Shown one piece after another: positions 2,201 through 28,963 of a stretch of DNA of 28,963 nt; position 1 is the stretch's first letter; each line of letters begins with the position of its first letter. Location: positions 2,211 to 31,173 of the forward strand of contig CAYTWZ010000002.1 in the NCBI GenBank assembly GCA_964442035.1, written 5' to 3'. Below the pieces are notes generated by a model. It ran no database searches, was not told where the DNA came from, and worked only from the letters and a program-made list of their open reading frames with translations. Both the position numbers and the translations under genes were made by a program. This DNA comes from an uncultured Oscillospiraceae bacterium (GTDB lineage: Bacteria > Bacillota > Clostridia > UMGS1883).

Positions 2201-2224
2201 CATTGGCGCGTTTTGGTGTATAAT
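2197..2224 (+). promoter_or_regulatory. Sigma-A promoter of the BY-kinase/phosphatase operon
   Basis: TTGACA (2197-2202, overlapping the TGA stop of the previous gene), a 16-nt spacer, and TATAAT (2219-2224). This leaves a ~140-nt 5' UTR. Confidence 0.6.
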
Positions 2225-2229
2225 TAAAG

Positions 2230-2323
2230 TAAGGGATTTTTGAATAATTTGCGCTTGCGGCTTAGAACAACTCTTGAGGTTATTTTACTTACAATCAGCG
2301 TTTTAGAATTAATCAGGGCTTCC
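2230..2323 (+). repeat. Short-form copy (R1) of an imperfect-palindromic intergenic element family
   Basis: The left arm 2230-2276 matches 27572-27618 at 35 of 47 positions by my hand alignment. The right arm CAATCAGCGTTTTAGAATTAATCAGGGCTTCC (2292-2323) matches 27709-27740 and the reverse complement of 24476-24507. The central ~80 nt present in the two long copies is absent. Confidence 0.6.
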
Positions 2324-2367
2324 TTAGGATAAATTATAGGGAAAATTATTCCGGGAGATGATAATTT

Positions 2368-3688: not shown

Positions 3689-4417
3689 ATGGACTATAAG
3701 CTGATTGATTTTCATACACATATTCTGCCCGGCATTGACGATGGAAGCAAAAATGCGGAAACGTCGGTCAAAATGCTCAAAAGACTGGAAGAACAGGGTG
3801 TAAGCGATGTTGTACTAAGCTCCCACTTTTACGCCTCCCAGAACAGCATTGAGGAATTTGCACTCCGGCGAGAAAAAAGCCTCGGCCGTCTTTTGGAAGA
3901 GCTTGATAAGACTCCCGTAAATATCAGGCTTCACCTTGGGGCGGAGATATTGTTCATGGATTACATTGACCGGGTAGAGGGCCTTAGTGAGCTTGCCATA
4001 GGCAAAACCAAATATATTCTGTTGGAGATGCCCTTTGTCAAGTGGAGCGAAAGGATGCTGGGAACAGTCTACAAGGTCATAGGCAACGGCTACATTCCTG
4101 TTATTGCCCACTTTGAGCGCTACATTCCCATACAGGGAAAGCTGGATTATATATATGAGCTAAAACGTATGGGCTGCATACTTCAGATGAATGCCGGCAA
4201 TTTTAAAGGCTTTTTCCGGAAGGGGAAGGCGTTGAAGTTTTTTGAAGATAATACTGCATCGCTTTTAGGAACAGACTGCCACAATCTGGACAGCCGACCT
4301 CCCGAGCTGAAGGCGGCCTATGAAGCAATAGGCCAGAAGCTTGGGGAAGATGAACTTCGGCGCATAAGCGCTGTAGGGGAAAAAATCCTCGAAAATTCCC
4401 GGACAGTGTATAACTAA
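3689..4417 (+). CDS. PHP-family protein-tyrosine phosphatase (CpsB/YwqE type)
   Basis: The N-terminal sequence is LIDFHTHILPGIDDG, with SSHFY, HFERY and GTDCHN metal-site motifs. I prefer ATG 3689 (GTGAGGT upstream) over GTG 3677. Confidence 0.85.
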   Translation: MDYKLIDFHTHILPGIDDGSKNAETSVKMLKRLEEQGVSDVVLSSHFYASQNSIEEFALRREKSLGRLLEELDKTPVNIRLHLGAEILFMDYIDRVEGLSELAIGKTKYILLEMPFVKWSERMLGTVYKVIGNGYIPVIAHFERYIPIQGKLDYIYELKRMGCILQMNAGNFKGFFRKGKALKFFEDNTASLLGTDCHNLDSRPPELKAAYEAIGQKLGEDELRRISAVGEKILENSRTVYN

Positions 4418-4544
4418 ACGAAAGATGTCCCCCGTTGGCGGGCGATCCTTTCGTTTTCGGGGAGATCAATCTCCCACCGAAAACGCCCCATGACGGGCTT
4501 TCAGCCCTTATTGAACTAAAAACAGGAGAACATTCGGTGGGAGA
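4409..4544 (+). promoter_or_regulatory. Conserved structured intercistronic element, copy A (candidate attenuator or cis-regulatory RNA)
   Basis: 4409-4513 aligns with 25391-25499, including identical 20-nt and 19-nt blocks. Pairings are P1 4416-4424/4448-4456, hairpin 4452-4466/4470-4485, and hairpin 4495-4507 followed by TTATTG. There is also a perfect 12-nt complement between 4470-4481 and 4533-4544. Confidence 0.55.
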
Positions 4545-8902: not shown

Positions 8903-9051
8903 AGAAATTCCTCCATAATTAATGATAGTGGTATTATTGAATCTCCCGCTGAAATCCTGAGGAGTGAGCGTCCCCTGCGCAGGTTGCAATCGTTCGCAAG
9001 ATCCATTTCAAGCAAGCTTGATGGAGCGTTGTTCCGATTTAAACCGGCAGA

Positions 9052-13775: not shown

Positions 13776-16700
13776 TTATTTGCTTACTGACGTCAATGCG
13801 CATGAGGATGAGCCTGAGTACGTGCCGCCGGTCACTATTCCGTATGGCTCTTTCCCCGTGAAAGCGCCACCTGTTACGCTCCCTCCGTAATTTAATGTGT
13901 ATGAGCCGCTTTTGATTTCAGGTGTTGATATAAATACCCATGCGTATGCTTTTGACGGTACATATGTCACAATTTCATCCCCGCTTGAATTTGTTAGCTT
14001 GAACGCCTTACCCGCTGATTGTGATGAAAAGCCGCCTGAACCGCCCCACATACCGCTGCCGGAGGAACTTGACGAAGTCACAACGTAATACTGCTTCGCG
14101 CTGTCGGGAGTTATCGCCATATCGGATGAACCTGCGCCAATTACAGTACCTCCTGTAATTGAAAGTGTGTCGCCGTTGTTATCGCCTATGTCAAACACGC
14201 CGTTCCCGCCGCTTGTGGGGCCGTTTACAAGAAGCGTACCGCCCGAAATTAGAGCGCTGCCGTTGCTGTCAAAGCCATCGCCCTCTGCTTCGATATAGAC
14301 CAGTCCGCCGGATATTTCAACATATCCGTATGTCGACGAATCCTCACCGCCCCAGTTGGGACCGCTGTTCCAGCCTTGATTGCCGCCGTTCCAGCCTTGA
14401 TTGCCGCCCGGCCCCGCTAAAAGCTCAACTGACAAAGCGGAAACGGTATCAATGTCATATGCGCTGTCTGTCGGCTTGTCGCCTGCCGCGTTTACACCGT
14501 CGTCAGAGGAAACGATTCTTGTTTCACCGCCTAAAACATATATATTTGCGGCTTCTATGCCTTCATAGCTCTTTGTAATATTTATATCGGCGTTATCGCT
14601 TATATAAAGATAGCTGTCGCCGTGTATCCCATCGTCGCCTGTGGCGGCGGTTATGCTTCCGCCGATTATGCGCACAGTATGGTTTGAATGAACGGCGTCA
14701 TCATAGGTGTTTATATTGAAAGTGCCGCCACTGATATAAACAAGGTTGCCGCCCTTTACGCCCTTACAGCTGCTCGCCGCCTCGGGATTGTTTGCCGAAA
14801 CGGTCTGGGGCGCACCGCCGTATGCGGTCAAATCAAATGTGCCGCCGGAAATATTTGTTATGTTCTCGCTTTGTATACAATCCTGCTGGGAATTTACAGT
14901 GATATTGCCGTCTGTAACAACAACATTTCCGGTCCCGCACTGTATTCCGTCCTCGCTACAGGTTATGTCAAGAGTTCCTCCGTTGATATCAATTTCACCC
15001 TCTACATAGGCGAGAACCGTTGCTCCGTCTGTGTCGTATATTACCTCATTTACTTGAATTCCCTCCAAGGCTTTGGTGATCGTTATATTTGCGCCGCTAC
15101 CTATTGTAATGTTTTTTACCGCTTTGATTCCGTCCTCACCGGCCGACGCGACAATTGTGCCGCCTGTGATCGCCACACAGCCATCGCCCTCGGCAGGCGT
15201 GCCACTTGTTAACGTCGTGTCCTCAAGGTATGCAATGCTCGAAGCATTAGCCTTGATAGCTTCACCCGCGGCGTTGATCGTTATGTCGCCGCCAGTGATC
15301 GTGAGAAGAGTATCAGCTTGTATGCCGTCCCCGTTTGATACAGTGCCGTCCGTGCCTGTTGTTGTTTTTGAGGTTATATTTATTGTGCCGCCGTTTATCG
15401 TAACAGAACCGCCGGAAACGTATTCATTTGTCAGCGCGTCAATTTCAGGATCCTGATCGGACTTGATTCCGTCTCCTCCGGAAACAACCGTTATCGAATT
15501 GTTTTTCTTTGTGATTTTTACGGATTGGTCACCCTTTATGCCGTTGTTTGCGGCAGTAACATTTAAATCGCAGACGCCAATTTCGATGTCGTTCTTACAG
15601 CGTATGCCGTTCCCGTAATCGGATATTGCGTTAAGCGTTCCCTCACCCTTTATTGTAAGGTCATTCTTGCTGTAAATTGCTGTTGTATCCCCGTCCGATG
15701 AAGCTGATCTGAATGTGCTTTCGTTTTCTGTGGGAACAAGTGTTACCGTTCCCTTTAAACCGTCAAACGCGTTCCCCGTTGTGCTTGTTACGCTTACACC
15801 GTCAAGATTGACGGTGATTAAATCTGTCTTTTCGGAGGAATTAACTATTATCTGTCCATCGTTTAATGTGCCCTCAACGGTATATTCTCCCGCCGCCGTA
15901 ATTGTAACGGCAGTTCCAGATACGGTTACATTTTCAATGCCATCGGCATTCACGCTGTCACCCATAAGATGTATTATTCCGTCACCCGCGGAAATTACGG
16001 GATCCTGTGGAGATTCCTCCTCAGTCGCTTTGGTGGTGACGGTAACAGTGATATCGCCTGTTATCTTGGTTATTCTGTATGTATTTTCCCCAAGCTCGGA
16101 GGGCAGCTTTAGATTTTTGTAATTTGTTGACGGGGTCACTTCAACAGATTCGATCTCGTAGCCCTCATCCGCGGTAATCTTAAAATTCACCTGTCCGTTG
16201 CCGGAGGTATCGATTTCGCCGGTGTCGCCGCTTCGCGCGTATGCCTCTGTAACAAACTGCTCATCGCCTGTAAACACCTGCGTGTCAGACACGGCTATTG
16301 ATGCGTGGGAATCGGTCTCAAATGTCGCTTTAAAGCCCTCCGCTGTCGTTGCCTTGGTGGTGACGGTAACAGTGATATCGCCTGTTATCTTGGTTATTCT
16401 GTATGTATTTTCCCCAAGCTCGGAGGGCAGCTTTAGATTTTTGTAATTTGTTGACGGGGTCACTTCAACAGATTCGATCTCGTAGCCCTCATCCGCGGTA
16501 ATCTTAAAATTCACCTGTCCGTTGCCGGAGGTATCGATTTCGCCGGTGTCGCCGCTTCGCGCGTATGCCTCTGTAACAAACTGCTCATCGCCTGTAAACA
16601 CCTGCGTGTCAGACACGGCTATTGATGCGTGGGAATCGGTTTCAAATGTTGCTTTAAAGCCCTCCACAGGAACAAACACATCACTTAGCGGCTCAAGGGT

Positions 16701-17033
16701 CAGTACGCCGTTTTCTGTTTTCCAGAAAAAAGCTTTTAAAACATCGCCGTCATCTTTTAATGTGCTGTTAAAGACAAGCGACTTGTTGCCGGTTCCGTTT
16801 GTTTCTTCGGATACCACAATGCCCTTGAGCTGCCCTAAAGAGTCATATACCGCAACAATTCCTTTCCCGCTTTCGTCTGAGCCTTTGCTTACGACCATTG
16901 ATATATTTCCGTTCTCGTCAATATCCAATGAGGTAATTGAGCAGGCAAGCTCTGCCGCCTCCGCGGCAATTGAAAAAACCATCAGCGATAAAACGATGAT
17001 AAAACATAGAACCTTTGTGGAAATGGATCTCAC
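13776..17033 (-). CDS. Secreted Cthe_2159-like beta-helix carbohydrate-binding-domain protein with duplicated N-terminal domains
   Basis: A signal peptide is followed by two near-identical 108-aa domains. A long run of GDGI(K/Q/H)xD, DDGIH, YEGIEA, DDGVNA and GDGFDSNG turns follows, which is typical of the PF14262-type parallel beta-helix. The GTG start has GAGGAGGA 6 nt upstream. Confidence 0.7.
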   Translation of the reverse strand: MRSISTKVLCFIIVLSLMVFSIAAEAAELACSITSLDIDENGNISMVVSKGSDESGKGIVAVYDSLGQLKGIVVSEETNGTGNKSLVFNSTLKDDGDVLKAFFWKTENGVLTLEPLSDVFVPVEGFKATFETDSHASIAVSDTQVFTGDEQFVTEAYARSGDTGEIDTSGNGQVNFKITADEGYEIESVEVTPSTNYKNLKLPSELGENTYRITKITGDITVTVTTKATTAEGFKATFETDSHASIAVSDTQVFTGDEQFVTEAYARSGDTGEIDTSGNGQVNFKITADEGYEIESVEVTPSTNYKNLKLPSELGENTYRITKITGDITVTVTTKATEEESPQDPVISAGDGIIHLMGDSVNADGIENVTVSGTAVTITAAGEYTVEGTLNDGQIIVNSSEKTDLITVNLDGVSVTSTTGNAFDGLKGTVTLVPTENESTFRSASSDGDTTAIYSKNDLTIKGEGTLNAISDYGNGIRCKNDIEIGVCDLNVTAANNGIKGDQSVKITKKNNSITVVSGGDGIKSDQDPEIDALTNEYVSGGSVTINGGTINITSKTTTGTDGTVSNGDGIQADTLLTITGGDITINAAGEAIKANASSIAYLEDTTLTSGTPAEGDGCVAITGGTIVASAGEDGIKAVKNITIGSGANITITKALEGIQVNEVIYDTDGATVLAYVEGEIDINGGTLDITCSEDGIQCGTGNVVVTDGNITVNSQQDCIQSENITNISGGTFDLTAYGGAPQTVSANNPEAASSCKGVKGGNLVYISGGTFNINTYDDAVHSNHTVRIIGGSITAATGDDGIHGDSYLYISDNADINITKSYEGIEAANIYVLGGETRIVSSDDGVNAAGDKPTDSAYDIDTVSALSVELLAGPGGNQGWNGGNQGWNSGPNWGGEDSSTYGYVEISGGLVYIEAEGDGFDSNGSALISGGTLLVNGPTSGGNGVFDIGDNNGDTLSITGGTVIGAGSSDMAITPDSAKQYYVVTSSSSSGSGMWGGSGGFSSQSAGKAFKLTNSSGDEIVTYVPSKAYAWVFISTPEIKSGSYTLNYGGSVTGGAFTGKEPYGIVTGGTYSGSSSCALTSVSK
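16031..16665 (-). repeat. Near-perfect tandem duplication (2 x 324 bp, in frame) inside the large secreted protein gene
   Basis: 16031-16341 is repeated at 16355-16665 with an offset of 324. The only differences I see are two C/T changes near 16316/16640 and 16325/16649. Confidence 0.9.
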
Positions 17034-24475: not shown

Positions 24476-24646
24476 GAAAACGCTGATTGATTCTAAAATG
24501 CTGATTGGCGGGAAAATTTTTCTCGCAGTAAGGCAAAAAGCGCATGATTACTTGCTGTATTATGGGCTTCTTTAACCGAACTGCGGGGGAAATAACCGTC
24601 AAGCAGCGTTTTAAGCCGTAGACGTGAATTAATCAGAGCTTCCTTG
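24476..24646 (-). repeat. Long-form copy (R2) of the imperfect-palindromic intergenic element family
   Basis: The reverse complement aligns end to end with 27572-27740. Its arms carry GCTGATT x2 (24482-24488, 24500-24506) and AAGCAG/AATCAG (24601-24606, 24630-24635) in inverted orientation. It ends 24 nt before the GTG of the nucleotidyltransferase gene. Confidence 0.6.
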
Positions 24647-24796
24647 ATATTATTTGCCGGGAGAAAAATCTTATTCCAGGAAAACTACGGATCCATACAT
24701 TTGATATAGTTCGGTTCCATCCATGCGATTTTTGCTTTAACTTTTTTGCCCGCAATCAAAAATACAAATAATACAAAAAAAATTACAAGATTGTTC

Positions 24797-24825
24797 TTGA
24801 CAATCATATGACCGTGTGATATAAT
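24797..24825 (+). promoter_or_regulatory. Sigma-A promoter of the HTH-NfeD-flotillin operon
   Basis: TTGACA (24797-24802), a 17-nt spacer, and an extended -10 TGaTATAAT (TATAAT at 24820-24825). AATCATAT occurs twice around it (24802-24809, 24823-24830). Confidence 0.65.
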
Positions 24826-24852
24826 CATATCATAAGCAAAGAGGGTGATCAG

Positions 24853-25395
24853 ATGTATGTGCTTCCCGGAACAAATATTGAAGTAGGGGAGCTGTCCTTT
24901 GACAGCGTTAATTCGCTGCTGAATTCAATTTTTCTCACAGGAGGACTGGTGCTTAGTCAGGTGGCAGGAATGACTGACTGTGCTCCACATGTGGTGCAGA
25001 ATTGGGTCAAAAGAGGGTTTGTTTCGCCGCCGGTGAACAAGAAATACAGCAAGCGGCAGTTTTGCAGAATAGCCTTTATCAACTTTTTGAAGGATGTGAT
25101 GCAGATCGACAAGGTCACGGCGCTGATGGAATATATTAATGGGGCGCTGGATGATGAAAGCGATGATCTGGTGGATGACTGTACGCTGTACTGCTACTTT
25201 GCTCAGGTAATAGGACAGCTGACGGACTTCCGCCGGGACACCATAGAGTCTGTGGTGGAAAAGTCGGTCTCCGGAGGAGGAGACAGCTATATCCAAGTCA
25301 GGCTCAAGGCCACACTTATAGTTATGGCCACCTCTTACGGAGCGGCAATGCTTCGAAGCAGGGTCAATTTGCTTATAAGTCAGTTGGATATATAA
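24853..25395 (+). CDS. Putative MerR-like HTH protein of the DUF1836 (YkrK-like) type
   Basis: The segment LSQVAGMTDCAPHVVQNWVKRGFVSPPVNKKYSKRQFCRIAFINFLKD fits the pattern I remember for DUF1836 proteins (t..mi.nyvK......P..KkYs..h......i..LK). The SD is GAGGG, 7 nt upstream of the ATG. Confidence 0.5.
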   Translation: MYVLPGTNIEVGELSFDSVNSLLNSIFLTGGLVLSQVAGMTDCAPHVVQNWVKRGFVSPPVNKKYSKRQFCRIAFINFLKDVMQIDKVTALMEYINGALDDESDDLVDDCTLYCYFAQVIGQLTDFRRDTIESVVEKSVSGGGDSYIQVRLKATLIVMATSYGAAMLRSRVNLLISQLDI

Positions 25396-25499
25396 CTAAA
25401 CGAAAGATGTTCCCGACTATATGGGCGGTGAGCGACCCTTTCGTTTTTCGGTGGGATATCAATCTCGAAACGTTGAAAGAGGGCTTTCAGCCCTTATTG
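25391..25499 (+). promoter_or_regulatory. Conserved structured intercistronic element, copy B
   Basis: It aligns with 4409-4513. P1 is 25398-25406/25438-25446. The central hairpin carries the conserved GATATCAATCTC apex. GGGCTTTCAGCCCTTATTG lies at 25481-25499. Confidence 0.55.
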
Positions 25500-25523
25500 G
25501 AAAAAAAGGGGGTCAAGGGGATA

Positions 25524-26162
25524 ATGTTCATTGTGAATTGGTGGAATGCCATGACAGCGGCTCAGCACGGGTTTTTGTATGTAGCGGTTCCGGCTACTTT
25601 AGTACTGGTCATTCAGACACTGTTGCTGATGTTTGGCATAGGCGACAGTGACGGTGATGTGCCGGACGGGGATATTCCCGATGTGGATGTTGGCGATGGA
25701 AATTTTCAGGCGGTGGAGGATTTCTCCAACTGCGATGTTTCCGGTGACTTGGACGGTGATCTGAGGATATTTACGGTCAGGGGTATGGTTGCGTTTTTCT
25801 CGGTGTTTGGCTGGTCAGGCGCGGCAATACTCGGAGGCGGACTTCCGCTGTGGTTTTCCGTTGTGGGGGCTGTAGTGGCGGGAGCTGCCGCAATGCTGGC
25901 GGTGGCGTTTATCGTCAAGTTTGCCCTTAATCTTCAGCAGTCGGGCAATATCAATCCCCGCAATGCCGTGGGTAAGTCCGGAACGGTTTATATAACTGTT
26001 CCTCCGGCTCGAAGCGGCAGCGGAAAGGTCAATCTTGTGCTTCAGGAGCGCTACTCCGAAATGGAAGCTGTTACCGATGGAGAACAGCCAATTTCGCCCG
26101 GTCGTGAAGTAACTGTAGTTGGAACTACAACAATGGGAACACTTATAGTTAGGGAAAAGTAA
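25524..26162 (+). CDS. NfeD/YqiJ-like membrane protein (acidic loop, TM helices, C-terminal OB-fold)
   Basis: It has TM helices flanking a D/G-rich loop and a C-terminal NfeD-like beta domain (GKSGTVYITV...GKVNLVL...VTVVG). It sits in the typical position upstream of flotillin. I prefer ATG 25524 to ATG 25407, because 25407 would translate the conserved non-coding element. Confidence 0.7.
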   Translation: MFIVNWWNAMTAAQHGFLYVAVPATLVLVIQTLLLMFGIGDSDGDVPDGDIPDVDVGDGNFQAVEDFSNCDVSGDLDGDLRIFTVRGMVAFFSVFGWSGAAILGGGLPLWFSVVGAVVAGAAAMLAVAFIVKFALNLQQSGNINPRNAVGKSGTVYITVPPARSGSGKVNLVLQERYSEMEAVTDGEQPISPGREVTVVGTTTMGTLIVREK

Positions 26163-26184
26163 AAAATAGGGGAGGAAAATTGTT

Positions 26185-27561
26185 ATGACTGTTTTAATTC
26201 TGATCTGCGTTATCGTTGTGCTGCTTTTGTCAACGATCATGCTCATCGTCAGCCGTTACCGCAAATGCCCCTCTGACAAGGTAATGGTCATCTACGGTAA
26301 GGTGGGGGCTAACAGCGACGGCACAAGCCGTAGCGCCAAGTGCATCCACGGCGGCGCGGCCTTTATCTGGCCGGTGATCCAGGCCTACGAATATCTGGAT
26401 CTTACGCCTATTTCCATAAGCGTTGATCTTAAAAACGCACTGTCACGGCAAAATATACGTATTGACGTACCAAGTCGCTTCACAGTAGGCATATCCACAG
26501 AAAACGGCATTATGCAGAATGCCGCCGAAAGGCTTTTGGGACTTAAGCTGTCCGAAATTCAGGAGCTTGCCAGGGATATCATATTCGGTCAGCTACGTCT
26601 TATCATTGCGACTATGGATATTGAGGAGATCAATACCGACCGTGATAAGTTCCTTGAGGCTGTGAGCCGCAATGTGGAAAGCGAGCTTAAAAAGATCGGT
26701 CTGCGTCTCATCAACGTAAACGTAACCGACATCACTGACGAAAGCGGATATATCGCTGCTCTTGGTAAGGAAGCGGCAGCCAAGGCCATCAACGATGCCA
26801 AGCAGTCCGTTGCGGAAAAGGATCGTGACGGCGCCATTGGTCAGGCCAACGCCCAGAGGGATCAGCGTATCTCCGTATCTGAAGCAAACAGCCTTGCCAT
26901 AACCGGTGAGAACGAGGCTCAGATAACCATTGCCAAGTCTAACGCTGTTCGCCGTGAGCAGGAGGCCGAAGCTCTTCGCAGGGCTACTGCCGCCGAAAAA
27001 ATTCAGGAGGCAAAAGCCCTTGAGGATGCCTACGGTGCCGAAAAAGAGGCCGAAATGGCCCGTGCCGCCAGAGAGCAGGCCACTCTTGAGGCTGATGTGC
27101 TCGTAAAGGCCGAGATCGAAAAGCGTCAGAAGGAAATCGCAGCCGCCGCCGAAGCGGAGCAGTTGCGTATTAAGGCACAAGGCGAGGCGGACGCCATATT
27201 TGCAAAAATGGCCGCCGAGGCAAAGGGTATGCAGGAAATTCTTACCAAGCAGGCGGAGGGCTTTGAAAAGATCGTTGCCGCCGCCGGAGGCAACGCATCC
27301 GATGCCATGAGGCTTATGCTTGCCGACAAGATGGAGGAGCTTATGCGCATACAGGTCGATGCCATCAAGAATATTAAGATCGACAAGGTCACTGTATGGG
27401 ACAACGGTAAGGAGGGCAATTCCACAGCCAACTTTATCAGCTCTATGGCTAAAGCTGTGCCTCCTATGAGCGAACTGTTCGACATGGCGGGCATGAAGCT
27501 GCCGGAGTATCTTGGCAAGAAAAAGGAAGCGCCCGCCGCCGACGCGGAAGCAGTGGGGTAA
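26185..27561 (+). CDS. Flotillin-family SPFH protein (FloT/YqiK-like)
   Basis: It has an N-terminal TM hairpin, an SPFH domain, long Ala/Glu-rich coiled-coil (EA) repeats, and the flotillin C-terminal region. GGAGGA lies 8 nt upstream of the ATG. Confidence 0.9.
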   Translation: MTVLILICVIVVLLLSTIMLIVSRYRKCPSDKVMVIYGKVGANSDGTSRSAKCIHGGAAFIWPVIQAYEYLDLTPISISVDLKNALSRQNIRIDVPSRFTVGISTENGIMQNAAERLLGLKLSEIQELARDIIFGQLRLIIATMDIEEINTDRDKFLEAVSRNVESELKKIGLRLINVNVTDITDESGYIAALGKEAAAKAINDAKQSVAEKDRDGAIGQANAQRDQRISVSEANSLAITGENEAQITIAKSNAVRREQEAEALRRATAAEKIQEAKALEDAYGAEKEAEMARAAREQATLEADVLVKAEIEKRQKEIAAAAEAEQLRIKAQGEADAIFAKMAAEAKGMQEILTKQAEGFEKIVAAAGGNASDAMRLMLADKMEELMRIQVDAIKNIKIDKVTVWDNGKEGNSTANFISSMAKAVPPMSELFDMAGMKLPEYLGKKKEAPAADAEAVG

Positions 27562-27571
27562 AGCTGTAACC

Positions 27572-27740
27572 TAAGGAAACGCTGAATAATTTACGCCTAC
27601 GGTTTAAAACAAACCTTGGCGATTAATTCACCGGCAGCTCGGTTAAAAAGCCGAGCTGCCGCAAGTATTCATGTGCCTTTTGCCTTGCCTCGAAAAAATA
27701 TTCTTTGCCAATCAGCATTTTAAAATTAAACAACGCTTCA
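27572..27740 (+). repeat. Long-form copy (R3) of the imperfect-palindromic intergenic element family
   Basis: It starts 11 nt after the flotillin stop. It aligns with the reverse complement of 24476-24646 and with both arms of 2230-2323. It contains a perfect 11-bp hairpin, CGGCAGCTCGG (27632-27642) / CCGAGCTGCCG (27651-27661). Confidence 0.6.
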
Positions 27741-27749
27741 TTTAATATC

Positions 27750-27863: not shown

Positions 27864-28963
27864 ATGAGCAAAGGAAAGCTTTTGCCGATACTGATGAGTC
27901 TGACAATGTTGGGCTCATCGGTCAGTATCCCCGTTTCCGCGGCGGAATACACCGACAATCAGATAGCGGACACGGTAGCCCGTGTAGCTGTGACGGAGAT
28001 TTTTGCCACGGATGTGAGCGAACCCTCTGAGGATGAATTTATTGCTCCTGCCGAAGATGTAGAAGAGAACGAGGCGGAAAAAGCGTCACAGGAGGATGCT
28101 TATGTCATGACAGACAGCGATGTTAAACTGTTCGCGGATTCATTGACATATGAAAACCTGCAATACGAAGTAAATGACGGCAATATTACAATAGTGGGCT
28201 GCAATGACGGTGTGGAAAGTATTGATATTCCCGCAACTATCGATGGGGAAGCAGTTACGAGTATTTCCGCTTACGCTTTCAGCGGACATTCAGATTTAAA
28301 AAAGCTCACCATACCGGAGGGAGTGACATATCTCGGGGCTTACTTTTTGACGGGAACAGCCGTAGAGAGGCTGACCATCCCCTCCACAGTGACGGAATCC
28401 GGGGGCAGCATCAACGGCGCGTTGGCCGGTTCCGCGGTTACAGAGCTGACCTTTGCGCCGGGCACGGTAAAAATTCCGAATAACATTTGCCGCAGCGATT
28501 CGCAGGGCAGTCTGCTTGAGATAGTCAATTTGCCGGACGGAGTGGAGACTATCGGAGATTGTGCTTTTACAAACGCCAAGAGCCTGACAAGGTGTGACCT
28601 CCCGGAGTCCGTTGTTACGATAGGAAATAACGCTTTTCAGAACTGCGTCAGTCTGGACGGCGAGATAAATATTCCCGCCAGTGTAAAAACTATCGGAGAT
28701 TACGCATTTGATGGCTGCAAAAGTATTACAAGCGTAAAAACCAACCTGAACACAAGCTCCGAGTGGGTAGGGACGGATAAAGTTTCCTTTTCAGCAACAA
28801 TTGGAAAGATGGCTTTCCGGAACTGCACTTCAATGAACGGTTTTGAGCTTGCCGCCAGCGTGAAAACGCTGAATAACTATGCGTTCGAGGGCTGCTCATC
28901 CCTGAGCGAGCTCACCATACCGGAGGGAGTGACATATCTCGGGGCTTACTTTTTGACGGGAAC
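27864..28963 (+). CDS. BspA-type leucine-rich-repeat surface protein (5' partial, runs off the window)
   Basis: This ORF is not in the ORF track because it has no stop inside the window; I translated it by hand. It begins with the signal peptide MSKGKLLPILMSLTMLGSSVSIPVSAAEY. Repeated IP..V..IG..AF..C..L units follow, as in the LRR_5 type. The frame is open to the last base. Confidence 0.75.
   Translation, partial: MSKGKLLPILMSLTMLGSSVSIPVSAAEYTDNQIADTVARVAVTEIFATDVSEPSEDEFIAPAEDVEENEAEKASQEDAYVMTDSDVKLFADSLTYENLQYEVNDGNITIVGCNDGVESIDIPATIDGEAVTSISAYAFSGHSDLKKLTIPEGVTYLGAYFLTGTAVERLTIPSTVTESGGSINGALAGSAVTELTFAPGTVKIPNNICRSDSQGSLLEIVNLPDGVETIGDCAFTNAKSLTRCDLPESVVTIGNNAFQNCVSLDGEINIPASVKTIGDYAFDGCKSITSVKTNLNTSSEWVGTDKVSFSATIGKMAFRNCTSMNGFELAASVKTLNNYAFEGCSSLSELTIPEGVTYLGAYFLTG
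28303..28963 (+). repeat. Long-period direct repeat inside the LRR gene
   Basis: The 55 nt AGCTCACCATACCGGAGGGAGTGACATATCTCGGGGCTTACTTTTTGACGGGAAC at 28303-28357 recur exactly at 28909-28963. The offset is 606 nt, or 202 codons. The second copy is cut by the window end. Confidence 0.85.

Follow-up and report, generated by a model that had tools for sequence, protein, structure and literature searches.

A structured repeat between a helix-turn-helix gene and an NfeD-flotillin gene pair of an uncultured Oscillospiraceae bacterium as a probable decayed copy of a mobile element

The HTH-NfeD-flotillin locus and its insert

The window analysed here, a stretch of 28,963 nucleotides (nt) from an uncultured Oscillospiraceae bacterium (contig CAYTWZ010000002.1), carries an operon in which a helix-turn-helix (HTH) gene is followed by the genes for an NfeD-like membrane protein and a flotillin. 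A short structured element, designated copy B, occupies the space between the HTH and NfeD genes, and a second copy, copy A, lies elsewhere in the window (Table 1). A preliminary description of this DNA had regarded the two copies as a shared device for conditional read-through or translation control of membrane and envelope functions. The analyses described below led us to a different view, namely that copy B is very probably a decayed copy of a small non-autonomous mobile element that inserts 3' of TATAA, and not a dedicated regulator of a membrane operon. The element is polymorphic in its presence or absence, resides in many unrelated contexts, leaves a defined insertion footprint, and contains four covarying helices.

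Table 1. Features of the HTH-NfeD-flotillin locus and of the two element copies (window coordinates)
Feature	Positions	Strand	Basis or remark
Sigma-70-type promoter of the HTH-NfeD-flotillin operon	24797..24825	+	TTGACA, 17 nt, TATAAT, with TG; 12/12 consensus matches
DUF1836/MerR-type HTH gene	24853..25395	+	PF08876, PF13411; orthologues likewise 180 aa
TATAA, left-flank target motif (resembling a target-adjacent motif, TAM)	25391..25395	+	Probably host DNA; already there in the empty site of a strain with 99% identity
Copy B, inserted DNA CTAAACG...TTATTGG	25396..25503	+	Right edge uncertain by ~3 nt; degenerate; 88 bits
Helix P1 of copy B, 25398-25406 pairing with 25438-25446	25398..25446	+	Encloses a weakened H1 (~25408-25434); fold, covariation
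Hairpin H2 of copy B, remnant	25446..25470	+	3' arm minus ~5 nt; alignment, fold
Hairpin H3 of copy B, GGGCT TTC AGCCC	25481..25493	+	8 nt before the right end; covaries across copies
NfeD-like membrane protein gene, true start	25524..26162	+	Nearest homologues 202-220 aa; 84% of the open reading frame covered
Flotillin/Band 7 (SPFH) gene	26185..27561	+	PF01145
Copy A: TATAA (4409-4413) and element (4414-4515)	4409..4515	+	Pairwise alignment, covariance model

Comparison with related genomes identified copy B as an insertion, because the orthologous HTH-NfeD-flotillin loci of relatives have a short gap without the element. The HTH stop and the NfeD start are separated by 128 nt in the window, and by 19 nt in locus L001, whose NfeD is 91% identical to that of the window, 21 nt in L002 and L003, and 18-19 nt in L004-L007. 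In BLAST alignments, L001 537-1151 corresponded to window 24777-25391 and L001 1155-2473 to 25504-26822; 112 nt in the window thereby stand in place of 3 nt in L001. The preliminary description had proposed comparing the synteny of NfeD-flotillin operons for co-occurrence with the element; in this comparison the element was absent from the relatives, and all gaps were 18-21 nt. Two side observations concern these loci. In one relative (L002 10637-11483), NfeD and flotillin are separated by a gene of the SdpI family, while the two genes are only about 22-26 nt apart in the window and L004, and operon content thus differs among relatives. Meanwhile, a diverged relative of the element (27 bits) was found between two genes of the window's 62%-identity relative at L004 1052-1189 (-), and also at L005 143-280; it has GAAAA replacing TATAA, and the 68-aa 'gene' called across it is likely another repeat-caused annotation artefact.

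Since a perfect promoter lies upstream and no terminator-like site was found across 24600-25700, including in or next to copy B and along the promoter-to-NfeD stretch, copy B is co-transcribed within the HTH-NfeD-flotillin mRNA. The HTH stop codon TAA (25393-25395) falls within the TATAA target motif, and the native ribosome-binding region of NfeD has been kept at 25505-25520. Copy B is most likely a passenger at this locus. It lengthened the interval between stop and start from about 19 nt to 128 nt and adds hairpins to the mRNA, but left the ribosome-binding region intact; any effect on NfeD-flotillin expression would be a by-product. Structured repeats of such a type can influence attenuation or mRNA stability, and frequently coincide with stop codons (PMC3049150). 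Exact-protein look-ups with the HTH and CpsB proteins of the window found no matching record, and a tRNA/tmRNA search returned none.

The element also offers apparent coding potential, in that an ATG at 25407 opens an open reading frame (ORF; 251 aa) in frame with NfeD and one frame of the element consensus is free of stop codons. A small protein, either an N-terminal extension of NfeD from 25407 or a 22-39-aa peptide from an element ATG, is nevertheless a reading of negligible probability. The ORF has 128 homologues; among the matches listed (120), the lengths were 196-251 aa, most of them 200-245, and the closest homologues cover only 84% of the ORF, with N-termini aligning from MFIVNWW, which corresponds to a start at 25524. 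The internal ATG is not preceded by a Shine-Dalgarno sequence, and in the pairwise alignment of copies A and B perfectly conserved blocks are separated by indels that shift the reading frame. These alignments place the predicted NfeD start at 25524 and mark the 25407 start as an annotation artefact. Both this artefact and the conservation of a non-coding element at the nucleotide rather than the peptide level had been proposed before; the homologues support the former, and the frame-shifting indels and the covariation described below the latter.

At the other locus, copy A is preceded by a Wzz/BY-kinase gene and then a CpsB phosphatase gene, and followed by a gene for a 253-aa product without family match (Pfam). 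The CpsB-like phosphatase ORF reads across TATAA in a different frame and stops at a TAA carried by the element (4415-4417), its C-terminus having been altered. Of the two stop codons that the earlier proposal had ascribed to the element, that of copy A is thus element-borne; the TAA of copy B, by contrast, is probably the native stop codon of the target. The orthologous site of copy A is unreadable in that the only close contigs begin inside or right after the element; one of them, L047 from a 100%-identical strain, begins inside copy A. Contig ends of close strains fall within the element, as happens where a repeat interrupts assembly. L048, a relative whose counterpart of the gene downstream of copy A is 87% identical, carries a partial opposite-strand copy where the window has none.

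Conserved fold and dispersal of the element

Four helices make up the consensus of the element. P1 encloses H1, an imperfect palindrome that is located 15 nt from the left end and has a conserved bulged C; the central hairpin H2 comprises 12 bp, and hairpin H3, located 8 nt from the right end, 5 bp. In the alignment, an ATG-containing motif precedes both H1 and H3. Among 25 copies, 96.2% of the cells were paired and 9 pairs were changed on both sides; none of 500 shuffles reached the observed level, and slid controls were 46-57% paired. A compensatory change in P1 distinguishes the subfamilies (AAACGAAAG/CTTTCGTTT versus AAAAGCAAG/CTTGCTTTT), and H3 takes at least five different sequences among the copies. 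The excess of G·U over A·C pairs (25 versus 12) points to the strand as written, i.e., the top strand, as the putative folding strand. Conserved structure alone cannot separate RNA from single-stranded DNA.

Within the window, TATAACTAAACG occurs solely at 4409 and 25391. The P1 arms of copy B are AAACGAAAG (25398-25406) and CTTTCGTTT (25438-25446), GATATCAATCTC is located at 25455-25466, GGGCTTTCAGCCC at 25481-25493 matches 4495-4507, and GGGCTTTCAGCCCTTATTG in copy B is common to 4495-4513 of copy A. All the sequence features on which the preliminary description had based two copies of one ~118-nt element with the described helices were found, and the alignments likewise reproduced the ~5 nt shorter 3' arm of the central hairpin in copy B and the different sequence of the P1-enclosed hairpin in the two copies; the right end of copy B was shifted from 25499 to about 25501-25503. 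A covariance model built from 17 copies gave exactly two hits in the window, far beyond chance, at 4409-4519 (88.8 bits, E 5e-19) and 25391-25505 (88.1 bits, E 7e-19).

These scores of about 88 bits compare with 104-150 bits for 16 other full-length copies, and the window copies share only ~70% identity with any other copy. Copy A lacks the H1 loop and part of H2, while in copy B the 3' arm of H2 is lost and H1 carries mismatches. In comparison with shuffled sequences, the fold of copy A gave z = -3.5 and that of copy B z = -1.7, the latter no better than shuffled. Both window copies are degenerate relics, of which copy B can probably no longer move.

The family is much larger than this pair. 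When species-representative genomes were scanned with an 18-mer of the 5' block, a pattern that included the TAA of TATAA, 25 loci were obtained. Of these, 4 are chance matches and 21, from 10 Clostridia assemblies, hold the whole element or a fragment; the carriers comprise, among others, Oscillospiraceae, Lachnospiraceae, Monoglobus, Eubacterium, and rabbit and other gut metagenome-assembled genomes (MAGs). At least 8 full-length copies plus variants, with pairwise identities of 79-100%, were found on 8 contigs of the MAG CAZYDW01. The copies in L009 and L025 are identical over 118 nt, TATAAC...TTATTGAA, and have unrelated flanks, which defines the ends of the element and demonstrates that the family was recently active. 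A metagenome scan with the H2-H3 linker block revealed further distinct copies forming a second subfamily, including one contig labelled human gut. As blastn searches of plasmid and phage collections and IMG/VR scans with three patterns returned no real copies, there is no evidence for a plasmid or phage vehicle. Rfam 15 contained no family match for the whole window at gathering thresholds, nor for both copies, a canonical copy and a long variant at E up to 10, with best scores of 11-20 bits against thresholds of 33-111, and a literature search for the element sequence string found no matching paper. The family thus appears to be an undescribed, small non-autonomous mobile repeat that is widespread in gut Clostridia.

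The gene contexts of the copies were diverse. Among the genes directly beside them are those for RecG, an HTH_11 protein, a HAD hydrolase, a Cys/Met pyridoxal-phosphate enzyme and a ProB-like amino-acid kinase, as well as IlvD, an iron-containing alcohol dehydrogenase (Fe-ADH), a GFO/IDH/MocA oxidoreductase, ThuA and a TrpB-like enzyme. In a census, 150 ORFs within ~4 kb of the copies matched 178 Pfam families, none with more than 3 members. The element has no link to membrane or envelope functions.

These contexts bear directly on the idea of a cis-regulatory RNA (riboswitch, attenuator or read-through element) coupling regulator genes to downstream membrane or envelope genes. Such a role would be in keeping with the covariation-supported structure and with the position of both window copies, which in sense orientation follow a gene of regulation or signalling and precede another gene, encoding a membrane protein in the case of copy B. 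However, the element is absent from orthologous operons, its neighbours elsewhere are unrelated housekeeping genes, 5 of the 16 copies between co-directional genes are antisense (the other 11 being sense, and the remaining copies lying between convergent or divergent genes), helix arms are lost in the window copies, and neither a terminator-like site nor an Rfam match was found, all of which renders this role highly improbable. The preliminary description had named absence upstream of orthologous operons combined with many unrelated genomic copies as the outcome that would contradict it, and both were observed. The proposed control of membrane and envelope functions was therefore abandoned, and the common layout of promoter, regulator, element and membrane protein gene is a coincidence.

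Insertion 3' of TATAA and candidate means of mobilization

The footprint of the element was read from an empty-site search with homologues of the ThuA gene that lies downstream of the canonical copy in L035. The site was empty in L054, a strain with a 99% identical ThuA, and also in the 75% relative L053. The empty site of L054 reads GTTCGCTTATAATCGGAGG, in wider context GTTCGCTTATAATCGGAGGAG, and the filled site of L035 reads GTTCGCTTATAA, followed by the insert CTAAAAGCAAG...CCCCTTATTGAA and then TCGGAGGAG (TCGGAGG). The inserted DNA thus amounts to 116 nt, from CTAAA... to ...TTATTGAA, placed directly 3' of a pre-existing TATAA, which in the empty site holds the native TAA stop codon of the upstream gene. 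As TATAA is already in the empty site, it is a target sequence and did not arrive with the element. Otherwise the flanks of the two sites are identical, without target duplication, and only a 2-nt AA is ambiguous at the junction. No terminal inverted repeats were found, the best end-to-end inverted match being 4 nt against a shuffled mean of 5.5. A classical MITE (miniature inverted-repeat transposable element) derived from a DDE transposon was rejected on the lack of both terminal inverted repeats and target-site duplication.

All copies are preceded by (T/A)ATAA, and this holds for the 6 that were retrieved independently of the motif. The upstream ORF ends within the first 9 nt (TATAA plus the first insert bases) in 8 of about 24 copies, and other copies are positioned where a -10 box would be. 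Because TATAA often ends genes or forms part of a -10 box, copies come to lie flush with a stop codon or just upstream of the next ribosome-binding site; targeting of TATAA hence explains the apparent 'operon architecture' of the copies.

Transposons of the insertion sequence (IS) group IS200/IS605, which move by 'peel and paste', insert 3' of a fixed 4-5-nt left-flank motif without duplication or inverted repeats, have subterminal hairpins on the top strand and leave a scarless empty site; protein-less derivatives, the palindrome-associated transposable elements (PATEs), exist in multiple gene-less copies (PMC5934647, PMC10055086). The element resembles PATEs (derivatives of IS608, ISDra2 and ISGst) in its retained left-flank target motif, the lack of duplication and of terminal inverted repeats, the putative subterminal hairpins on one strand, the scarless empty site, and the many short gene-less copies. 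It departs from them in its motif (TATAA versus TTAC, TTGAT or TTTAT in described elements), its dissimilar end hairpins, the covariation of an additional enclosing P1 and a strong H2, its very small size of 116 nt, and the absence of an identified cognate tnpA/tnpB. By this analogy we tentatively propose PATE-like mobilization in trans by an IS200/IS605-type Y1 HUH transposase, an assignment that is plausible but held with less than even confidence. The element would move as single-stranded top-strand DNA, with TATAA serving as the left cleavage and target motif, TTGAA as the right-end motif, and H1 and H3 as the subterminal hairpins.

Several observations weigh against this interpretation. 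The target rule is founded on one clean filled/empty pair and on left-flank conservation, and the scan pattern included TAA. At the copy B position, the empty sites of relatives read ATGTGA, CTGTGA or TTGTAA, not TATAA; the ancestor of the window presumably had ATA TAA there, which differs from L001 by two transitions. Within ~8 kb around the copies, neither a Y1 transposase nor a tnpB with matching ends was found, and no transposase family was enriched in the 150-ORF census, which would miss families occurring once. H1 and H3 are unlike in sequence and size, in contrast to the alike end hairpins of IS608, and on inspection by the IS608 rule (PMC5934647) the guide-to-cleavage-site pairing was unconvincing both for GATGT (5' of H1) with TATAA and for ATGAC (5' of H3) with TTGAA. 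The covariation of P1 and H2 is not required by the IS608 model, an IS607-like exchange by a serine recombinase would likewise account for the 2-nt AA overlap at the junction, and the excess of sense copies (11:5), although not significant, is a mild bias that leaves room for selection at the RNA level.

Further attempts to locate a partner were equally negative. No transposase was found in the window, and an all-against-all BLAST of the loci gave no shared long repeat that could represent an autonomous partner. The ORFs beside a copy with a replaced 5' part have GNAT, PEP-utilising enzyme, methyltransferase and WYL domains (Pfam). An IS110 element in L055 (639-1814; DEDD_Tnp_IS110, Transposase_20) was considered as the partner and rejected, since its ends differ and it gave no model hit. 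As a separate observation, this IS110 gene sits directly after ThuA in one metagenome sample, where L056 and L057 have the next operon gene.

The same repeat could instead be moved by another class of enzyme, i.e., an IS607-like serine recombinase acting at AA, or an IS91/rolling-circle or IS110-type system, which we regard as unlikely. The AA dinucleotide is common to both junctions and the empty site, and IS607 too has neither terminal inverted repeats nor target duplications, its exchange taking place across an identical dinucleotide (PMC6188088). Yet IS607 has no target preference beyond the dinucleotide, while the TAT upstream of AA is conserved here, and its ends are short direct repeats rather than covarying hairpins; an IS607-like exchange at AA is accordingly the weaker alternative to the IS200/IS605 mechanism. 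For the IS110 type, the only such element seen was that of L055, with its unrelated ends.

The covariation of P1 and H2, which binding by a transposase alone leaves unexplained, is one argument for co-option of the mobile repeat at the RNA level, as an mRNA stabiliser, RNase processing site or partial attenuator that shifts the ratio of HTH to NfeD-flotillin expression. The predominance of sense copies, the excess of G·U over A·C pairs and the stable fold of copy A agree with such a function, and precedents exist in the repetitive extragenic palindromes and bacterial interspersed mosaic elements (REP/BIME), the enterobacterial repetitive intergenic consensus (ERIC) and BOX (PMC3049150). It must be set against these points that the fold of copy B is no better than shuffled, that the window copies are degenerate, and that the orientation bias is not significant, and the chances of co-option are consequently considered small. 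A still less probable reading is that the element constitutes a complete omega-RNA-type guide scaffold carried by a PATE, in which read-through from an upstream gene adds a right-flank guide for a TnpB/IscB nuclease encoded elsewhere, homing to the TATAA-flanked empty site after excision. It would explain the P1/H2 covariation, the highly conserved single-stranded segments across bacterial families and the sense excess. Alternatively, the family may represent a new class of structured mobile element, either RNA or single-stranded DNA, that is moved by a dedicated enzyme.

Relation to known repeats and other repeats of the window

Among dispersed repeats of Firmicutes, the element invites comparison with pneumococcal BOX (also RUP and SPRITE), which is likewise modular, highly structured and co-transcribed in operons. 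For 36 coding sequences of S. pneumoniae, the end falls within a BOX repeat that 'encodes the stop codon' (PMC3049150), and the element shares with BOX both stop codons in the repeat (here in 8 of about 24 copies) and module-shuffled variants. On the other hand, BOX is reported to have ISSpn2-like terminal inverted repeats, of which the element has none, and BOX belongs to a single species group whereas the element spans several Clostridia families; no sequence resemblance to BOX was noticed, without a dedicated comparison.

The hairpins of REP/BIME, ERIC and Correia repeats can alter mRNA stability or processing (PMC3049150). Like REP/BIME and ERIC of enterobacteria and Correia of Neisseria, the element is a structured extragenic repeat at gene ends in operons. 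These repeats occur in different phyla from the element, however, and Correia and ERIC have terminal inverted repeats, the former also a TA duplication, while REPs are single palindromes of 20-40 nt linked to RAYT genes. The mobile/repeat sequence candidates (MRSCs; PMC11109978) share with the element multiple copies per genome, inconsistent orientation and covariation-supported structure, but they often stand beside transposase or integrase genes, unlike the element with its housekeeping neighbours.

Other structural candidates were also dropped. Integron attC sites have complementary R''/R' ends (RYYYAAC...GTTRRRY) that pair together, and are organized in cassette arrays. This identity was rejected, as the 5' end of the element pairs internally in P1 and not with the 3' end, and the copies are dispersed, not arrayed. 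A pseudoknot between the H2 loop (CAAU) and the 3' tail (AUUG) was discarded because the same tail is kept in copies with other loops, an outward promoter (TTGAAT-17-TATTGA) was too weak, and a CRISPR-like repeat was considered and dropped.

For the window itself, these results remove a false lead: the capsule-kinase and NfeD-flotillin operons have no shared riboswitch-like control, and NfeD should be annotated at 25524. For surveys of structured RNAs, they illustrate that a TATAA-targeting repeat can mimic the arrangement 'stop codon, structured RNA, next gene' and satisfy tests of covariation although it is no regulator. The family, which shows recent activity in at least two lineages, causes breaks in metagenome assemblies and gives rise to false N-terminal extensions, and a covariance model for it would improve annotation. 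Should a partner transposase be found, the tools based on single-strand transposons would gain a new target motif.

Variants of the element point to exchange of its parts. In L026, the module of a longer (~175 nt) variant, which belongs to the same superfamily of modular repeats, comes immediately after a variant copy of the main element. Module-shuffled variants are clustered, with head-to-head fragments, at L030 2850-4900 and L029 5870-6110 and 7290-7380, where TATAA and the H1 module are joined to other 5' leaders (CCTATTCGCCGATGT) or to other 3' modules. This suggests recombination between element families, as with the BOX A/B/C modules. A 5'-truncated fragment of the longer variant also occurs in the window at 8938..9047 (+), with 79-91% identity to L026 2987-3090, L029 5897-6000 and L030 3718-3763. 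It lies antisense between two minus-strand genes, a racemase-like gene, whose start is likely 8902 and not 8989, and a metallophosphoesterase gene.

The window contains three further repeats. An unrelated repeat of ~180 nt, with ends resembling terminal inverted repeats (CTGATTAATTC...GAATTAATCAG) as in a classical MITE, occurs at 27562-27745 (+) and 24478-24665 (-), and in a short form of ~115 nt at 2220-2345 (+); the two inverted copies bracket the HTH-NfeD-flotillin operon and the third lies upstream of the BY-kinase gene, and the repeat was found in none of the fetched loci. A 300-nt segment (16024-16323) is repeated with 99% identity at 16348-16647, 324 nt apart, within a 1085-aa minus-strand ORF (13776-17033). 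This is probably an internal domain duplication of a surface protein; SLH-domain proteins of similar size are found near the matching position in a relative. Finally, an exact 55-nt repeat occupies 28303-28357 and 28909-28963, 606 nt apart at the right edge of the window, which cuts the second copy.

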